The notes: generated from the letters alone by a model not told the origin. DNA of 36,730 nucleotides from Chiloscyllium plagiosum (GCF_004010195.1 NC_057752.1:10896018-10932747); one strand, 5' to 3'; positions 7,492-34,962 are shown, counted from the stretch's first letter. Numbers and translations are program-made.

Positions 7492-8163
7492 AGCATACAG
7501 CAAGGAAACAGGCCTTTCAGCCCAACTCATCCATGCGGCCAGATATCCTAAACTAAATTCGTCCCATTTGGGCGTGTTTAGCCCATATCCCTCTAAACCT
7601 TTCCTATTCACGTACCTTCCAAATGTCTTTTAAATGTTGTAATTGTACCTGCCTTGAGTACTTCTGCTGGCAACTCGGCCCATGTACCCACCAACCTGTG
7701 AAAAAGCTGCCCCTCAAGTTCCTTTTAAATCTTTCCCCTCTCACCTTAAACCTATGCCCTCTAGTTTTCAATTCCCTTACTGAAATATCTGATTGCCTGT
7801 CACAAATTCACAGTACATAGGCTCTGACCAGCAAGTTCAGAACCAAGTCTGAGAAATGAGGTAACTCTTTGAACCTCCTGCTTATTTTATCCTTTTTTTG
7901 TGTCTTCATTTATTCCCATAGCCTATGGAGACCTCCTGAATCTACTGTTCATATATGTCAGCCAAGGCTCCCTAATGGCTACGGTTAAAAACCCCAATCA
8001 AGGATCTCAATGAGATCCACCTAACCCTTATTCTAATCACTACACAACCCTTGGGAAACAACTTTGGCCATTCACCTTATCTGTGCTCCTCATGATTTTA
8101 TAAACCTCTATAAAAGGTCACCCCTCAGCCTCCTATACTCCCAGGGAAAAGAATTTCCAGCCT
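7492..8163 (-). mobile_element. HER1-like 3' fragment split by an insertion at ~7781-8044
   Basis: HER1 tail similarity at 7492-7780 continues at 8046-8163. Confidence 0.75.
7940..8044 (-). mobile_element. Gypsy LTR 5' half
   Basis: Matches 23325-23437 (tgtcagccaaggctccct..cccc.atca.gga..tgag.tcca..aatcactaca). Begins TGTAGTGATT on minus. Confidence 0.75.
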
Positions 8164-10719: not shown

Positions 10720-11220
10720 CCGCCCACTGAAGGCCTCCCACCCTCTGGCACCCCACACTCACCGCCTCACACTGGGCTTCAGGCCGACGCCTCAGAAACT
10801 CCGCGCTCGGCGCTCGCACCACAAACCGTCCGTTGCCGATCCCCCCCCCACCCCCCCCTCCAAAAAAATAGCAACCCAAGGTTGTGTTTTCGAGAAGTGA
10901 TGAAGGAAGGAAGATAGGGAGGGAGGGGAAGGGAAAAGGACACAACTAAGGGAATGAGAAAGAAACCAAACTGCGGAAAAATAAAAAGAGAAAAAGAAAG
11001 AAAATAATCTGGCCGGCTTCGGCGCCTGCGTACTACGTCACGCTTTCCTGCCCACTCAGTGACGTCAACAGGTGCTCCGTGCTTGTGACATCACCGGTTT
11101 GTGCGTAGAGCCCCTGAGAGCCGGCGCTAGTCTCCAGGACGCCCCTTACATTGAGCGGAGGCGCGGCAGGTGTTTCACGCTCGTGTGTTGCTTCAAACGC
11201 AATTTTATTCCGTTCCGTCC
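10720..11220. promoter_or_regulatory. CpG-island promoter with CRE/ATF sites
   Basis: The only CpG-dense non-repeat stretch. TGACGTCA at 11060-11067, TACGTCA at 11034-11040, TGACATCA at 11086-11093, and NRF1-like GCGCCTGCG at 11022-11030. Confidence 0.75.
10763..10970 (-). other. Non-coding 5' exon of an unidentified minus-strand host gene
   Basis: CpG-rich unique sequence ending in the donor GCG|GTGAGT (10757-10762). Strong polypyrimidine acceptor ..ttttccgcAG at 10971-72. No ATG seen. Confidence 0.6.
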
Positions 11221-11697: not shown

Positions 11698-11933
11698 GGG
11701 AGAAAGTGAGGACTGCAGATGCTGGAGATCAGAGCTGAAAATGTGTTGCTGGAAAAGCGCAACAGGTCAGGCAGCATCCAGGGAACAGGAGAATCAACGT
11801 TTCGGGCATAATCCCTTCTTCAGGACAATTTCCTCATTCCTGAAGAAGGGATTATGCCCGAAACGTCGATTCTCCTGTTCCCTGGATGCTGCCTGACCTG
11901 CTGCGCTTTTCCAGCAACACATTTTCAGCTCTG
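11698..11933. mobile_element. Young palindromic Penelope-derived element (two inverted pLTRs)
   Basis: 96-bp arms at 11730-11825 and 11838-11933 with 2 mismatches. 15-bp duplication CTGCTAAGCTTTTCT at 11683-11697 and 11931-11945. Confidence 0.85.
11836..11872 (+). ncRNA. Minimal hammerhead ribozyme motif
   Basis: CTGAAGA (11840-46), stem II GGG-attatg-CCC, GAAAC-GTC (11860-67). A mirror copy lies on minus in the other arm. Confidence 0.65.
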
Positions 11934-13739: not shown

Positions 13740-14092
13740 TTTGGCCTGGCATGGCTGCAGCATGGACTTCCGGTCTTCAGGTGATTCCAGAGCGGTCTCC
13801 CGGCCTCGAGAACCTGGAGGTGAAGCTCGGCGCAGTTTGGAGTCAAGGCCCAGTGCAGACTGGAGGTTAGGTACCAGTGTGGACTAGGTTAGAAGGGCCA
13901 TTGCTCGGAACTTTTTAATTTTCTATTTACTAATTTATTCCGACAATCTGCTATGCTGGTCTTTTTATTTCTTTTTTATTTTTCTATTTTTTTTCCTAAG
14001 AACATTTAATTAAGAATTTGTACCGAGGTACTTTTGTACTTAAGATGGCGCCATAAGTGGCAGACATGTAAACATTTCACTGTACTCATTTG
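13740..14092 (+). mobile_element. Non-autonomous non-LTR element with a Rex1/Babar-like tail; tail completed at 20051-20075
   Basis: ..aagatggcgcc..tttcactgtactcattt, then caataaagctaattcagttcaatt after the CR1 insertion. Confidence 0.55.
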
Positions 14093-16742: not shown

Positions 16743-17616
16743 NNNNNNNNNNNNNNNNNNNNNNNNNNNNNNNNNNNNNNNNNNNNNNNNNNNNNNNNNN
16801 NNNNNNNNNNNNNNNNNNNNNNNNNNNNNNNNNNNNNNNNNNNNNNNNNNNNNNNNNNNNNNNNNNNNNNNNNNNNNNNNNNNNNNNNNNNNNNNNNNNN
16901 NNNNNNNNNNNNNNNNNNNNNNNNNNNNNNNNNNNNNNNNNNNNNNNNNNNNNNNNNNNNNNNNNNNNNNNNNNNNNNNNNNNNNNNNNNNNNNNNNNNN
17001 NNNNNNNNNNNNNNNNNNNNNNNNNNNNNNNNNNNNNNNNNNNNNNNNNNNNNNNNNNNNNNNNNNNNNNNNNNNNNNNNNNNNNNNNNNNNNNNNNNNN
17101 NNNNNNNNNNNNNNNNNNNNNNNNNNNNNNNNNNNNNNNNNNNNNNNNNNNNNNNNNNNNNNNNNNNNNNNNNNNNNNNNNNNNNNNNNNNNNNNNNNNN
17201 NNNNNNNNNNNNNNNNNNNNNNNNNNNNNNNNNNNNNNNNNNNNNNNNNNNNNNNNNNNNNNNNNNNNNNNNNNNNNNNNNNNNNNNNNNNNNNNNNNNN
17301 NNNNNNNNNNNNNNNNNNNNNNNNNNNNNNNNNNNNNNNNNNNNNNNNNNNNNNNNNNNNNNNNNNNNNNNNNNNNNNNNNNNNNNNNNNNNNNNNNNNN
17401 NNNNNNNNNNNNNNNNNNNNNNNNNNNNNNNNNNNNNNNNNNNNNNNNNNNNNNNNNNNNNNNNNNNNNNNNNNNNNNNNNNNNNNNNNNNNNNNNNNNN
17501 NNNNNNNNNNNNNNNNNNNNNNNNNNNNNNNNNNNNNNNNNNNNNNNNNNNNNNNNNNNNNNNNNNNNNNNNNNNNNNNNNNNNNNNNNNNNNNNNNNNN
17601 NNNNNNNNNNNNNNNN
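16743..17616. other. Assembly gap (874 N)
   Basis: Run of N. Confidence 1.
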
Positions 17617-18090
17617 CAAGGGCGGAGGAGCGGGAAGTGGAGGAGATGCGGTGGAGAGCATTGTCGATCACGTCTGGGGGGAAATTGTGGTCTCTGAAGA
17701 AGGAGGTCATCTGGGTTGTTCGGTATTGGAACTGGTCCTCCTGGGAGCAGATGCGGCGGAGATGAAGGAAATGGGAATATGGGATGGCGTTTTTACAGGG
17801 GACAGGGTGGCAGGTGTAGTCTAGGTAGCTGTGGGAGTCGGTCGGTTTATAGTAAATGTCCGTGTTGATTCAGTCACCCGAGATAGAAATGGAGAGGTCT
17901 AGGAAGGGGAGGGAGGAGTCTGAGACGGTCCAGGTAAATTTGAGGTCGGGGTGGAAGGTGTTGGTAAAGTGGATGAACTGTTCAACCTCCTCGTGGGAGC
18001 ACTAGGCAGCGCCGATAGAGTCATCGATGTAGTGGAGGAAAAGGTGAGGGGTGGTGCCAGTGTAGCTGCGGAAGATGGACTGTTCCACAT
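17617..18090 (-). mobile_element. Penelope-like RT fragment inserted in CR1
   Basis: YVEQSIFRSYTGTTPHLFLHYIDDSIGAA and MTSFFRDHNFPPDVIDNALHRISS. ATGCAG occurs at 16737-42 and 18091-96. Confidence 0.88.
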
Positions 18091-20526: not shown

Positions 20527-21142
20527 TGATAGCTCCTTGAAAGTGGAGTCACAGGTAGATAGGATAGTGAAGAAGGCGTTTGGTATGCTTTCCTTTATTG
20601 GTCAGAGTATTGAGTACAGGAGTTGGGAGGTCATGTTGCGGCTGTACAGGACATTGGTTAGGCCACTGTTGGAATATTGGATGTTGCCAGGGTTGGAGGA
20701 TTTGAGCTATAGGGAGAGGCTGAACAGGCTGGGGCTGTTTTCCCTGGAGCGGAGGCTGAGGGGGTGACCTTATAGAGGTTTATAAAATTATGAGGGCCAT
20801 GGACAGAATAAATAGACAAAGTATTTTCCCTGGGGTAGGGGAGTCCAGAACTAGAGGGCATAGGTTTAGGGCGAGAGGGGAAAGTTATAAAAGAGACCTA
20901 TGGGGCAACTTTTTCCACACAGAGGGTGGTACGTGTATGGAATGAGCTGCCAGAGAAAGTGGTGCAGGCTGGTACATTTGCAACATTTAAGAGGCATTTG
21001 GATGGGTATATGAATAGGAAGGGTTTGGAGAGATATGGGCTGGGTGCTGGCAGGTGGAACTAGATTGGGTTGGGATATCTGGTCGGCATGGATGGGTTGG
21101 ACCAAAGGGTCTATTTCCGGGCTGTACATCTCTATGACTATA
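20527..21142 (+). mobile_element. HER1/CR1 3' fragment with internal deletion at ~20680
   Basis: SLKVESQVDRIVKKAFGML..RPLLEY|MLPGLEDL; full tail. Confidence 0.92.
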
Positions 21143-21144
21143 TC

Positions 21145-23437
21145 AGGTGTCCCTGACTTCTTTGATAGTCCCTAGACCTTCCAGAAAATCTTCCAGGTAT
21201 TTAAGTAGGACTTCACTCAGGCAGACATTTTCTAAATCAAAAAATGTTGGGCCAATCAAGGTGAATCTGTCTCAACCAATTCTGCCCCATCCAACCTGGG
21301 CCTGTGCCCTTTACTACAATCAGTGGGAACTGAACCAACTGCTTCTCCTAAGAGACCAGAACCGAAGTTGTACCCTTTAATCTGGAAAGGTTCCCCAGTA
21401 TAGGTTCTCAGTCTAACCGAGGTCCAACGCAAACTTAAAGGTTGGAGTCCAGAGCAAATTTTGTTAAAGACTGGTTCTACGATCACTGATATGGCTGTGT
21501 CAATATTAACCTCCATTAGAACCAGGTGACCATTTAACCATGCGTTAATTTTGATTGGTTCCTGTTTGGATGTTGCTAAGCAATTTAACTGCTCCAAACC
21601 AGATGTAAGTGGGCTTTCCAGGGTGTGCTCTCTCCTGAATATCAGCCCAAGAGTTCTCTTACTCAATTTAGGTCTAGTAGGATTCTTTTACTGTCTCGAG
21701 TCTGCACACAACTACAATGGCTTACTGGCTTGGAACCAGAAGGAAAAATGTTAACTGTTTGGCCGAGGCTTGAATTTGTTTTGGGGTTTTGCTGTGGGCT
21801 GACCTCGACTCCCTCTGTTCAGGATATGGCCTGAGTGAGGCTGTGTAATTGCCGTCACTCAAATAGTATCCCCCAAACTCAGTCGGCCTGGCGAGGGAGT
21901 TCACTTCCATTGGAATACCCTGTAACTCATGCTCCATTTGCCAAATTTCCTAATGACAACGCCAGTTGTAGGGCCTGTTTGAAGTCCAGTTGGGCTTCAA
22001 CTAGTGGGGACTTTTGCATGGATACATTAATCCCACATCCCAAATGGGCTCTTAGCATCTCATTAAGAGTTACATCAAAAACTCATGCCTCTGCCAGTCA
22101 TCATCACCTCATCAAAAATCCCAATCCTGATTCCCCTGGTTCTCAAATTGCCAAGTAAAATCAATAGTGATTCAGAATTAGATGAGGCATGGGGTCATAA
22201 TATTCTTGAACTAAATCTGTTAACTCTTGAAAAGTTTTAGTATCTGCTGGTGCCTCAGGGGAAGTTAGATTCCTAATAACTGAAAAAACCTATTGGTCCA
22301 CAAACTGTCAGGAGAATTGCTTGTTGCTTTTTATCTGCCCCAATATTATTGGCAGGATCAAATAAGTCAAGCTTCCCAAAAAATGGCATAATGCCAGAAA
22401 TGCTTACCCCAATACAAAGTTGACTGTTGCCAGCAAAATTTCTTCAGGAGCCTATTTTCTTCTCTCGTTGCCACGGAAATAACTTCCCAGAGGCCAATAT
22501 CCTGTCACCAAGTCACCCTTTTGTTTTGTGCAAAGTCCCTGACACTGACTCAGCTCCCTTAGAGCCAGCTCTTAGAGTGAGCAGAACCTCTGACGCTCTT
22601 GTTTCTGTTTTTCCCCAGTCAGTCCCATTATTCATTATGCCATTGTCCTGCAAATCTATTTCTTTCAATGGCACATCCAACTTCTTTTTGAAATCTCTGA
22701 CTGGCTCTGCTTATATGTCGATATAGCAATTTAGTTGTCCCGTGAAAAGGGCATCTGGTTAAAGGTGATTTAGGGTGTGCTTCCAAAATTCTAGAATAAC
22801 TCTAGCACCTAAACAATAATAATGTAATTTGATTAAAGTGAGGTGTTAAGCAAATTTAAAACGTATACCACTTTTGTCCATAAATAGCACAGAGACACTC
22901 CTGTTTCTTTTTTTTTGTAAGACTCCTGTTTATTATTTTTTGCTGTGTGAACTCCTGTTCTTTTTTTTTAAATTTAACCCCCACACTACCGCCTAACTGC
23001 GGTAGTGCTCCTCTCCTGATTATATATTTTTTCTTTTTCTTTTATTTAACCTCCACACTACCGCAGTTAGGCGGTAGTGCTCCTCTCCTGATTATATATA
23101 TTTTTTCTTTTTTTTTTTTAAATTTAACCCCCACACTACCACCTAAGTGCGGTAGTGCTTATCTTACACTCCTGTTTCTTTTTTTTTGCAGTCACCTGTT
23201 TATTTTTTTTCTTTCTTTTGTTTTCTTTTTTTTTTCTTTTTTTTCTTTAATCTCCTGTTTATTTATTTTTTTTTCTTTTTTAACCCCCACACTACCACCT
23301 AAGTGCGGTCGTGCTTATTTTACACTCCTGTTTCTATCTGTCAGCCAAGGCTCCCTGATTGGATCAGGTTAATAGCCCCAGTCAGGGAACGTATCTTTTA
23401 TGAGGTCCATTTGGACTACCTCATTACAATCACCATA
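21145..23437 (-). mobile_element. Truncated Ty3/Gypsy LTR retrotransposon (split 5' LTR, PBS, gag, protease)
   Basis: LTR halves at 23322-23437 and 22475-22605. PBS-like tggcaacgag at 22464-22473. Gag start MPFFGKLDLFDP at 22389. Protease-like PIKINAWLNGHLVLMEVNIDTAISVI..RLRTYTGE. Confidence 0.85.
22891..23333 (-). repeat. Array of poly(A)-tailed short inserts separated by ACTCCTGTTT-like motifs
   Basis: About 9 motif copies; four hairpin units at 22984, 23056, 23134 and 23290. Confidence 0.85.
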
Positions 23438-23449
23438 ACTTAATTGCTC

Positions 23450-24060
23450 AGACCACCGGATATAAGAATTAGTACATCATATTGAGGTTGTATAGGATGT
23501 TGGTGAGACAACTTTTGGAGTACTGTGAACAGTTTTGGTCGTCCTGCTATAGGAAGGATATAATTAAATTGGAGAGGGTTCAGAAAGGATTTACCAGAAC
23601 GTTGCTGGGACTGGAGGGTTTGAGTTATAAGGAGAGGCTGGATGCCCAGGGGCTTCTTTTACTGAAGCATAGGAGGCTGAGGGGTGACCTTATAGAGGTT
23701 TATAAAATCATGAGGGGCATGGATAGGGTGAATAGCAGAGGTCTTTTTCCCAGGGTGTGGGAGTTCAAAATTAGGGGTATGTTTTTCAGGTGAGAGGGGA
23801 AAGATTTAAAAAAGGACCTGAGGAGCAACTTTTACACACAGAGGGTGGTTTGTATGGGGAATGAATTGCCAGAAGAACTGGTAGATGCAGATACAGTTAA
23901 AACATTTCAAAGACATTTGGACAGGTACATGAATAGGAAAGGTTTAGAGGGATATGGGCTAAACACAGGCAAGTGGGACTAGTTTAGTTTGGGAAACTTG
24001 GTCAGCAGGGATGAGTTGGACTGAAGGATCTGCTTCCTTGTTGCATAACTCTATGGTTCT
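23450..24060 (+). mobile_element. HER1-like CR1 3' fragment
   Basis: ORF 23482-23793 (LYRMLVRQLLEYCEQFWSS..) plus the tail. Confidence 0.9.
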
Positions 24061-24141
24061 ATAACCTTCTGCATAGCTTGCTGAAGCTGCACGTTAGTCT
24101 TCAGTGATTTGTCAATGAGGACCCCCATGTCCCTTTGTACA

Positions 24142-24464
24142 GGCTTAGTGGTTAGCACTACTGACTCACAGTGCCAGGGACCCAGGTTTGATTCCAGCCT
24201 CTGGTGACTGTCTGTGTGGGATTTGCACATTGTCCCCATGCCTGCATGGGTTTCCTCCCACAGTCCAAAGATGTGCTGGTTAGGTGACTTGGCCATGAGA
24301 AATTGCCCATCATGTTCAAGGATGTGTCGGTTAGGTGCATTAATCAGGGTTAAATATAGAGTAATAGGGTAGGGGAATGGGTCTGGGTGGGTTACTCTTC
24401 GGAGGGTCGGTGTGGACTTGGGCCAAATGGCCTGTTTCCACACTGTAAGGAGTTTATGATTCTA
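24142..24464 (+). mobile_element. HE1-type V-SINE
   Basis: Similar to 19597-19920 throughout. Confidence 0.9.
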
Positions 24465-24884
24465 TAAATACTCTGCACATCTGTTTCTCCTCCCAAAGTG
24501 GATAATCTCACTTCTTTACAGAATATTCCATCTGCCCACTCACTAAACCTGTCCAAACCCACTTGAAGCCATTTTATATCACCTTCCTACAACACAGATT
24601 CCCTCTTAGCTTTATATCATCTGAAGATTTGGAAATATTATGTTTGCTTCCCACCTCCAAGCCATTGGTTGTTTTGTGAACAGCTGGGGTTCTGATCCTT
24701 GTGGTACCTCACCAGTCACAGCCTGGCAATGTGAGAACGACCCATTTATTCCTACTCTCTGTCTGTTAGCCAATCATTAATCCATTCCAGTACATTACCT
24801 CCTATCCCATCCATGCAATTTAATTTTTAACCAACGTCCTATGGGGTACTTTATCAGAACCCTCATGAAAATCTACACCCATCA

Positions 24885-24992
24885 GGAGCGGGTTCTTGTG
24901 GGGCCGTAGTAGTAGATCCAGGAGGTCCTAGCTTAAATCCGACATAGTGTAGAGCTGTGTAATAACATTCCTGAACAGGTTGATTATAAAAC
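24885..24992 (+). mobile_element. Short tRNA-derived SINE
   Basis: Related to 12185-12290 (cttgtggg..ggagg.cctag..aaatc..taaca..ctgaacag). Confidence 0.55.
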
Positions 24993-25167
24993 ATGTTGAT
25001 TCGTTTTCCTTTCTCAATTTTGTTTGTAGCACCATCACAAAACTCCAAGTTCATCAAGTATGATTTCCCATTCACAAATCCATGTTGACTATGCCTAATC
25101 AGATCATTCTCAATCAGGTGGCCATTCAGTCCATGCTTTATAATAGATTCTAGCATTTTCCCGAATG

Positions 25168-25390
25168 CTCATTTTTGATAAATCGGTTAGCTGATTTGGC
25201 TGGGTGTTTCGTATGCAATGTAGAGTATTGCCGGCTGTGGTGGGTTCAATTCCTGCACTAGCTGAAGTTGCCAAGAAGGAGCCCTTCTCAACCTCTCCCC
25301 TTGCTGGAGGCATCATGACCCTCATGTTAAACCACCACACATTATCTCTCTAATGAGAGAGCAGCCCTATAGTCCAGTGGGACTATACCT
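25168..25390 (+). mobile_element. tRNA-derived SINE (third family)
   Basis: B-box gggttcaattcc and the tail hairpin tctctctaatgagaga. Interrupts the CR1 frame. Confidence 0.6.
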
Positions 25391-33320: not shown

Positions 33321-34456
33321 CACCACCTTCTCCCTCCAACCCTTGCATAACTGTTCCTGTTTCAGACAGTTCAGTGCAGAATGGTATTTCAAATCCCATC
33401 GAAACCACCTGGTGACGATATTCGGAGCATTCCCAGGGTTCATTCTTCTGTTGAAGTTCCTCAAATCTCTGTTTTCATAGCCAGAGGGATCCTTATCTCT
33501 GCTTTCATATTGATAGAGTCGGCTTGTATCGAGGTGGTCTCAGATTGCCACAGTGACTGAACCCTCCATTCCTTGTGTTACTGCTCAGTGTTCCATTTCA
33601 GCCATGAAGGATGCTGGGAAAGAATTATTTCTCAGGCTCTCTTTTAAATTCAGACTGACATCTGTTCCTAAAATGTGGTTTTCTCTGAAAATGTCACTAT
33701 GGTTGATAGTAAGAGTCTGTCCATGTTCAACAGTGGAGCACAGTCCAGCAACGTAAAGGCAAGCACTGCGTGTGGAATATCCCAGTCACATTTTTGCAAT
33801 CTTCTACACAATCTGTTAAGTTCTATTATATATTCATTAACAAAATATCTATACTGCTTTCTAAATTTATCAGAGTCTGATCATGTCCCATAACATGTCA
33901 TCTTCCCTAAATATTCAGTCTGTAAATTTTAAGTTTCTAAACCCTTCTCAGTGTTCAAATGTTGAGCCTTTAGCTTAGAGTGCACTTCATAAGTGATCTT
34001 ATTCTTCATCAGGAATGACAGTACCAAGGTCACACCTTATCTTTTTTCCTGGAAAGGATGTGGCCAGTGTCTACATATCTACTTCAGTTTTCCATTTAGC
34101 TTCACAGAGCATCATTGGGAAGTTATATCTTCTCCAAACAGAGAGGCAGAAACCATGACTCCATTGTGGATAGAATTTATTAACTACTCAGTTTTAAGGA
34201 TCCAAACACACCTTTATATCTCCCCAGTCAATTAATTCATCAATTAACCCCCAATCACATGGTCAGGACAAAGTCCTTTTTAATTCAAATCAGCCGATTC
34301 AGTCATGTTATGTGACACATCCAAAGCAGGTGAATGCAGACCATCTGGCTCAGAGGTAGGGACACTGGCACTGTGCCACAAAAGCCTTGCATAACCACAT
34401 GCTCTGCTGTCAGTGACTGTGAGGTGCTCTCTCTCTCTCTCTCCTCATTTCAATTT

Positions 34457-34750
34457 CCTGATTGGGGTCCTTGTCTTGCCTGCCCCATTGAGTGTCGCTG
34501 ACTGCCTGATTGGGGTCCTTGTCTTGCCTGCCCCAATGAGTGTCTCTGACTACCCGATTGGGGTCCTTGTCTTGCCTGCCCCATTGGGTGTCGCTGACTG
34601 CCTGATTGGGGTCCTTGTCTTGCCTGCCCTATTGAGTGTCGCTGACTGCCTGATTGGGGTCCTTGTCTTGCCTGCCCCATTGGGTGTCTCTGACTGCCTG
34701 ATTTGGGGTCCTCGTCTTCCAACTGCTGTTCTCGGTGATGCTGACTGTCT
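34457..34750. repeat. 48-bp minisatellite, 5 full copies plus 1 diverged copy
   Basis: Unit cctgattggggtccttgtcttgcctgccccattgagtgtcgctgactg starts at 34457, 34505, 34553, 34601, 34649 and 34697. Confidence 0.95.
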
Positions 34751-34962
34751 GAAAGCAGTCGGAAAAGAGACAGCAGGGACTCTGACCACATTATGACAGT
34801 TCCCAATAAATATTCAAGCTATGCAATTAGACTGGGGGGAATCCAATTTCGCTGCGTTTTTCCCCCAAGGATACACTGGGGAACAATAGCAAATAAATAC
34901 ACGGAGTTTGGACTTAGCAATGTATGGGTTAAACCAAGCTCTGGGAAGATAAAGGGAATATA

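Follow-up and report, generated by a model that had tools for sequence, protein, structure and literature searches.

The long terminal repeat (LTR) whose two parts lie at 22475-22606 and 23322-23428 of the window (the whole stretch of 36,730 nucleotides that was analysed) is interrupted by 729 bp, and the explanation that we prefer, with a probability of roughly 0.55, is that this interruption arose by three local target-primed insertions, two of which would have carried mini-stacks copied from other copies of the LTR. The earlier note on this DNA had proposed a local log with one insertion for each interval. Judging from the sequence, most intervals were probably not made one by one at this LTR.

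Outside evidence came from four public runs, compared with positions 22420-23480 at 80% likeness: contigs of organism A from two studies (X1 and X5), contigs of organism B (X8) and poly(A) RNA reads of organism A (X21, about 2% of the run). The results refer to the best 40 of 133 differences, 15 of 206 joints, 12 of 124 between-letter rows, 24 of 1032 loose ends and 24 of 20265 pieces. The host element consists of the following features:

23322..23428, minus strand: 5' part of the LTR, with target copy c1 at its end; alignments with related copies cover 23322-23435, and the 5' edge is approximate (23428-23435)
22475..22606, minus strand: 3' part of the LTR, recognised from joints skipping 729 bases; the LTR ends at 22475/6
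21903..22392, minus strand: broken gag-like gene with stops and a frame change (stops read as X)
21358..21600, minus strand: retropepsin-like protease piece, held as a lead (Atlas feature score 0.94, peptidase A2/retropepsin clusters)

Before 22476, between 398 and 682 contigs per DNA run turn loose, and the stretch directly after the LTR end (22463..22474, minus strand) is what we take to be primer-binding-site-like. Two motifs of the LTR promoter are presumably a CCAAT box at 23362 and a TATA-like box, TAGAAA, at 23336. The gag piece resembles a cloudy catshark "retrotransposon gag domain-containing" protein (61% identity, 93% of 129 residues, E 1.1e-31), while Pfam gave no match for the gag piece, the protease piece or the catshark relative, and a search among longer proteins gave no match. 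The element is broken off near 21140 by another repeat (families D2/D5) and its RT region is missing. The order of LTR, primer-binding-site-like stretch, gag and protease lead is that of a Ty3/Gypsy host element, and the host is likely Gypsy, a label that we assume from general likeness. The LTR family reaches a summed contig depth, which is not a copy number, of about 2-3 x 10^4 times the single-copy depth.

The setting is repeat-rich vertebrate DNA. A related LTR-like piece at 7942-8004 (minus strand), with 80% likeness over 64 nt to the LTR 5' part, has a diverged target and is uninterrupted; as an uninterrupted control it was judged too weak. Elsewhere in the window there are a near-perfect inverted repeat at 11730-11933 (96-nt arms, 98% complementary, 12-nt spacer), a tandem array at 34409-34755 (48-bp unit, about 5.4 copies, 92% matches), a CpG-rich region at 10770-11200 with several TGACGT-like motifs, some 11.5 kb away from the array and resembling a host promoter, and a tRNA-Ser(AGA) called by ARAGORN at 25188-25265 (plus strand), which may be a SINE head. 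An assembly gap of 874 N (16743-17616) adjoins another retroelement fragment at about 17617-18080.

The extent of the interruption can be seen from empty copies of the LTR family, in which 22592 is joined to 23322 with 729 bases skipped (1, 3 and 3 contigs of X1, X5 and X8); a second empty-site joint runs from 22601 to 23331 (one contig in each of the three DNA runs), and 162, 182 and 244 contigs of these runs pass from 23322 straight into the LTR 3' part. An interruption of 443 bp (22891..23333) had been assumed before, but the LTR is not resumed at 22891. Since the joints skip 729 bases, two parts that had been overlooked also belong to the interruption, namely a decayed tenth target copy at 22593-22606 and a 288-bp single-copy insert at 22607-22894. 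The nine target-like motifs listed in the earlier note were all recovered by a search for the 10-mer in the array (22897, 22922, 22951, 23012, 23084, 23168, 23192, 23251 and 23324), as were the T-runs after the first eight of them and the continuation of the ninth into the LTR. The 12-nt target with at most one mismatch has four matches in the window, all four inside the array, with a chance mean of 0.30. From the LTR 5' part to the LTR 3' part, target copies and inserted blocks alternate as follows:

23322..23335, minus strand: target copy c1, full 14 nt, with G four bases before CAGG
23180..23321, minus strand: block A, 142 bp, made up of unit 4 (variant B) with its tail, c2, an A-rich tail, c3, filler and A8
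23249-23262, minus strand: inner target copy c2, short, followed by a 44-nt A-rich tail
23190-23203, minus strand: inner target copy c3, short, followed by filler and A8
23166..23179, minus strand: target copy c4, full 14 nt, the same as c1
22909..23165, minus strand: block B, 257 bp, made up of unit 3 (variant B), c5, unit 2, c6, unit 1, c7, filler and tail, c8, filler and A8
22895..22908, minus strand: target copy c9, full 14 nt, the same as c1
22607..22894, minus strand: block C, a 288-bp single-copy insert with a short A-run at its 3' end and a 15-nt target duplication
22593..22606, minus strand: target copy c10, decayed, with two mismatches to c1, both private

The copies c1, c4 and c9 are identical 14-mers, c10 carries two changes, and in all four there is G four bases before CAGG. 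At the two changed positions of c10 (22595 and 22599), about 90% of the family depth has the other base. Counted from a fixed start, the target duplications of blocks A, B and C measure 14, 14 and 15 nt, and this start lies inside the TATA-like box, 26 nt behind CCAAT. Block C, covered by one contig per run over 22744-22815 at depths of 8.61, 2.81 and 10.1 in the three DNA runs, is found in both organisms, an X8 contig matching 22608-22889 with three differences (3/282); no donor at 80% likeness was visible for it, with one contig per run. Its last 110 nt or so resemble what we take to be a decayed CR1-type 3' end. The depth over block C rises to 62-65 at 22672-22707, and in X8 extra contigs lie over its other end, with a depth of 56-68 at 22852-22890.

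Blocks A and B contain the hairpin units, of which the earlier note had counted four, and the four are indeed present:

23287..23314, minus strand: unit 4 hairpin core, variant B, with a private change at 23310 (99% of the depth has otherwise)
23131..23158, minus strand: unit 3 hairpin core, variant B
23053..23080, minus strand: unit 2 hairpin core, otherwise variant A, its loop being that of unit 1 in reverse complement
22981..23008, minus strand: unit 1 hairpin core, of variant A, a frequent form in organism A as well as B

The 28-nt unit pattern has four matches in 36.7 kb, all in the array (22981, 23053, 23131 and 23287, one with 1 mismatch), a number reached by 0 of 100 shuffles. Folding of the minus strand gives a stem of 11 bp in units 1-3 and of 7 bp in unit 4, with z values of -4.35, -3.44, -4.56 and -2.71. 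The 6-nt loops of units 1 and 2 are exact reverse complements, as are the 24-nt hairpins at 22984-23007 and 23056-23079, and the inversion of a loop inside a perfect stem is a known outcome of template switching (PMC8794818). That these two units share their flanks, as had been noticed, was confirmed: their 25-nt heads are identical, including a changed target and the same filler, the shared sequence amounts to about 36 nt when the tail sequence upstream of the target is counted, and Tandem Repeats Finder reports a 72-bp period with 82% matches. Units 3 and 4 share a head too (54 of the first 56 letters). Moreover, blocks A and B are collinear, A resembling B minus two inner hairpins. Each closes with a target copy of the T type and a short filler whose last letter is C, after which comes an A-run that is the same in both; the two last fillers disagree at roughly 4 of their 8 letters.

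The unit had been described as a 3'-end piece, which the outside runs support. Among the RNA reads on unit 4 none runs into the LTR, while 66+40 continue behind 23321/2 into one other sequence, and behind unit 1 eight X1 contigs likewise continue into a longer sequence, with about 30 nt of 5' extension visible. Because these reads and contigs extend the unit, it is the cut-off 3' end of a longer and very abundant element. Relative to the single-copy piece, the unit has a summed depth of some 1.07 x 10^5 in each DNA run of organism A and 2.6 x 10^4 in organism B, figures that give an order of magnitude and not a copy number. Variant B accounts for 0.75 and 0.80 of the depth over the unit in the two DNA runs of organism A, against 0.14 in B, whereas the depth of variant A relative to the LTR is similar in both organisms (0.87, 0.99 and 1.14), and for this reason variant B is probably a younger expansion, enriched in one lineage.

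The parent would be a poly(A)-tailed LINE of the L1/Tx1 group. A SINE is also conceivable, about 30 nt of the 5' extension being seen and no Rfam head match being found in 21000-25000. The parent's 5' extension was absent from the rest of the window, which holds no other copy of the unit, and no parent ORF was found in the window or in the extension of the unit by contigs and reads. In a metagenome scan the 3' half of the unit gave 14 matches, none with the hairpin arm or the tail, as expected by chance, viral contigs gave 0 matches to the unit, and Rfam gave four matches in 21000-25000, all far below the gathering score, so that no known small RNA was recognised there. A different A-rich-tailed 3' end lies at 13960-14080 (minus strand), directly behind a long LINE copy, and has no hairpin unit and no target. 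Two further ideas were dropped. The poly(A) library shows a strand bias on the unit, but oligo-dT priming on A-tails gives the same bias from any transcript, and the bias was not taken as a sign of transcription driven by the element. A transcription start in the host LTR had also been considered as setting the 5' end of the unit; transcription starts roughly 30 nt behind a TATA box, and since the unit's 5' end is only 15 nt behind the TATA-like box, this was rejected.

The LTR site is hit at other copies of the family too, in agreement with the earlier note, and the unit is found at or near it in both organisms. Joints from the tail to the LTR 3' part are represented by 4, 3 and 8 contigs (four of the best 15 of 206 joint rows); the exact site is fixed for one X8 row, the intervening letters are not given in two rows, and in one X1 row some 9 nt of the target are missing. 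Junctions from the LTR 5' part to the unit occur in X1 (two rows) and in an X5 contig of 1.9 kb, and the target prefixes before the unit at other loci are 7, 10 and 12 nt long. The window has 13 other A-rich runs, with no unit before and no target after any of them. The unit thus prefers this LTR site. It also occurs outside the LTR, since 30 X5 contigs lead from the unit tail into other sequence and, in organism A, the unit has 3.4-5.1 times the depth of the LTR; the preference need not amount to a dedication. Among the rows displayed, uninterrupted LTR contigs number 162-244 per run and interrupted ones 3-8. One published criterion for target specificity is that more than 20% of copies be flanked by the target (PMC4494074); set against it, both same-site copies and non-LTR flanks are seen here, among the best 15 of 206 joints and 24 of 1032 loose ends.

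That the intervals were not each made at this LTR is suggested by the inner target copies. While c1 has its full length, the six inner copies (c2, c3 and c5-c8) are short, with 4-7 of the 9 bases from CAGG on matching the target and duplications of 11-12 nt. Five of the six have T four bases before CAGG, and the sixth has G one base later. This T is the family's other common variant at 23334, where it makes up 44%, 44% and 54% of the depth in the three DNA runs. The local target has G, and its duplication therefore cannot give T, which makes these inner copies of a non-host allele. The tails are 82% A, yet every inner copy has at most three A before CAGG (p about 4e-5), which means that the base before CAGG was templated by a target and not by the tail. 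The chance of obtaining the inner T pattern from the tail composition is 1e-4, or 1.5e-3 to 5e-3 with neighbours collapsed, for a marker picked post hoc, and the case for import depends on a single base, seen in roughly three copies that count as independent. With a full-length c1, short inner copies and a base absent from the host LTR in five of six of them, the log of one local event per interval was not borne out. A polarity like that of a CRISPR-like log is present for the three blocks, not for every interval.

The course of events that we prefer would begin with a LINE that nicks the LTR family at a fixed point within the TATA-like box, probably GAT/A(G/T)AAACAGG, where the slash marks the presumed position. 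The A-tail would then prime reverse transcription, and the target would be regenerated as a 14-15-nt duplication. Three such events would have taken place beside the LTR 5' part, in the order C, B, A, an order that agrees with block C being common to organism B and blocks A and B being headed by the young variant B. Also, the duplication lengths of 14, 14 and 15 nt never increase towards the LTR 5' part, as growth there requires. Block C would be the oldest insert, 288 bp of non-LINE sequence that predates the split of organisms A and B. Blocks A and B may each be the copy of a read-through RNA (3' transduction) that began in a young variant B LINE at another LTR, continued across the older tails and target copies stacked behind it and was primed at its last A-run; the short inner target copies would then be cargo from donor LTRs of the T type. 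Reverse transcription would have halted 7 nt past the 3' hairpin of the variant B LINE. The same unit 5' end is found at another locus on a different target end (contig row 23006-23350), which means that the stop point recurs independently; this also weakens the identical heads of units 3 and 4 as a proof of duplication, a role for which they had been considered. The shared head of units 1 and 2 could come from a duplication reaching into an earlier insert, or from a short (72-bp) local duplication, and the flipped loop from a later template-switch inversion. The matches of the inner copies of block B shrink towards the head (7, 7, 6, 6), with older variant A downstream, a gradient that would be expected of serial growth at the donor. 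No donor locus for blocks A and B was seen among the contig rows displayed. Counting against import, the inner duplications are shorter than the local ones of 14-15 nt, and the likeness of A and B also fits local duplication. Read-through with copying and priming of this sort has been described for L1, R7Ag and R1Bm (PMC7265360) and for R2Ol (PMC6530143).

A bolder version of import, which we put forward only tentatively, is that the stacks are mobile cassettes that home between LTRs via read-through RNA and nest within one another, the hairpin stop setting their 5' end and the site being chosen for its place directly behind an LTR promoter. A full-length insert would sit directly behind that promoter and might make use of it.

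A purely local series of up to nine target-primed events, many of them behind an earlier tail and with variable short duplications, is unlikely in our view. It can appeal to the variation in duplication length elsewhere (the prefixes of 7, 10 and 12 nt), to an arrangement of block B as a series of events that needs a single G-to-T change, and to tandem SINEU-3 copies round one duplication, which have been read as sequential (PMC4494074). The same G-to-T change would, however, be required twice, in A and in B, each time matching the family's other allele, and the shared variant A units would have to postdate unit 3, which is of the variant enriched in organism A. Nine events on the LTR-proximal side alone are impossible, since a proximal copy cannot match the target beyond what an earlier copy left, and c1 is full length while the inner copies are short. 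Somewhat more improbable is a history in which local tandem duplication, A-tract slippage and hairpin deletion reworked two or three original insertions, so that A and B would derive from one block and unit 2 from unit 1. The 54/56 head of A and B, their same ending and the likeness of A to a block B without inner hairpins are as this explanation predicts, as are the approximately 36 nt shared by units 1 and 2 with their 72-bp period (82% matches), and a single mutation could account for all T copies. Against it, the last fillers of the two blocks disagree at some 4 of 8 letters, more than would fit a duplication that came after the variant B expansion (between the organisms, block C has 3/282), and other loci show the unit 5' end that A and B share on other target ends.

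Gene conversion or unequal exchange at the DNA level, without RNA, among tens of thousands of LTR copies would explain the foreign T equally well, given an LTR depth of about 2-3 x 10^4 times single-copy; we hold it to be quite improbable, as the LTR halves retain private differences up to the site (22595 and 22599), and the blocks are bounded by the host G-type 14-mer and end in an A-tail, as target-primed insertion predicts. An assembly artefact has almost no weight with us. No piece spans the whole array, and 23019-23290 was skipped as a repeat in the contig comparison, units 2-4 being known from the assembly alone; independent contigs nevertheless cover 23323-23480 (one X1 contig) and 22565-22965 (one X5 contig from the other study, with 1 difference), which makes an artefact unlikely for the latter half, and the units differ from each other in family-level variants. 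A possibility of another kind, compatible with any growth model and in our opinion doubtful rather than negligible, is that there is no dedicated targeting, and that a promiscuous element of the L1 type uses T-rich/A steps, with the TATA region and the A-tails as a hot spot. The probable nick on the bottom strand, TTTCT/AT or TTTAT/AT, resembles the consensus TTTT/AA of human L1 (PMC1950540), the unit depth exceeds the LTR depth, and 162-244 uninterrupted LTR contigs stand against 3-8 interrupted ones in the rows displayed. On the other side, the window has its four units at a single site and all in the same direction, its 13 further A-rich runs have neither unit nor target, the three blocks share the nick, and other LTR copies are hit there in both organisms.

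Several known systems come close to this locus, which works like a target-preferring Tx1/L1 system. In crocodilians, the Tx1-clade LINEs Tx1-8_Crp and Tx1-4_AMi prefer LTR retrotransposons (PMC4494074); the portion of that text drawn on here gives for them no site within the LTR, no link to the TATA box, no tail hairpin and no imported stacks. The host here is a cartilaginous-fish-like genome, and membership of the LINE in the Tx1 clade is presumed. In the same paper, tandem copies of SINEU-3, which is paired with Tx1-Mar, sandwich the target duplication in Mariner-N4_AMi and are read as sequential local insertions. There, as here, one site in an abundant old transposon is hit repeatedly (with a duplication of 16 nt, against 14-15 nt here), 5' truncation is frequent, and 5' additions by template jump or transduction are discussed; Kojima also proposed that SINEU is transcribed from the flanking target (PMC4494074). 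The differences are that the SINEU-3 target is a DNA transposon, that the unit there is an snRNA-headed SINE and here a LINE-like tail of 31-40 nt, and that the stacks there are read as local, whereas the inner target copies here carry a non-host allele. Tx1L of Xenopus laevis, found in Tx1D, is likewise a sequence-specific APE-type LINE that lands in another transposon (PMC1950540, PMC4494074), although its target is a piggyBac-type DNA transposon and the specificity of its endonuclease has been demonstrated biochemically, while that of the parent here is presumed. In L1, R1Bm, R7Ag and R2Ol, read-through RNA is copied along and downstream target sequence aids priming (PMC7265360, PMC6530143); the cargo here would differ, since it would consist of tails and target copies that had been stacked before at another LTR and were inserted again at a site of the same type. 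Outside mammals, Tx1 and CR1 are stated to drive retrocopies (bioRxiv 10.64898/2026.06.26.734816).

In outline, both the targeting of LTR elements by Tx1 and tandem stacking round a target duplication are already published for crocodilians. The openly licensed literature yielded no shark Tx1 at an LTR TATA box and no stacks moving between LTRs. The new twist is a hint, taken from one base of the inner repeats, that parts of a stack arrived ready-made from other LTR copies. Should the parent prove to be a LINE with sequence specificity for the TATA box of an LTR, a promoter-adjacent target would join the Tx1 repertoire, together with an endonuclease that has a defined 14-nt site. Repeat-spacer-like stacks of LINE tails are not necessarily local chronologies, as the diagnostic base indicates that inner repeats can come from elsewhere, and the same base would make 3' transduction between LTR copies countable genome-wide. 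Should homing cassettes be real, inner repeats marked by their allele would allow donor-to-recipient genealogies to be read from the genome.
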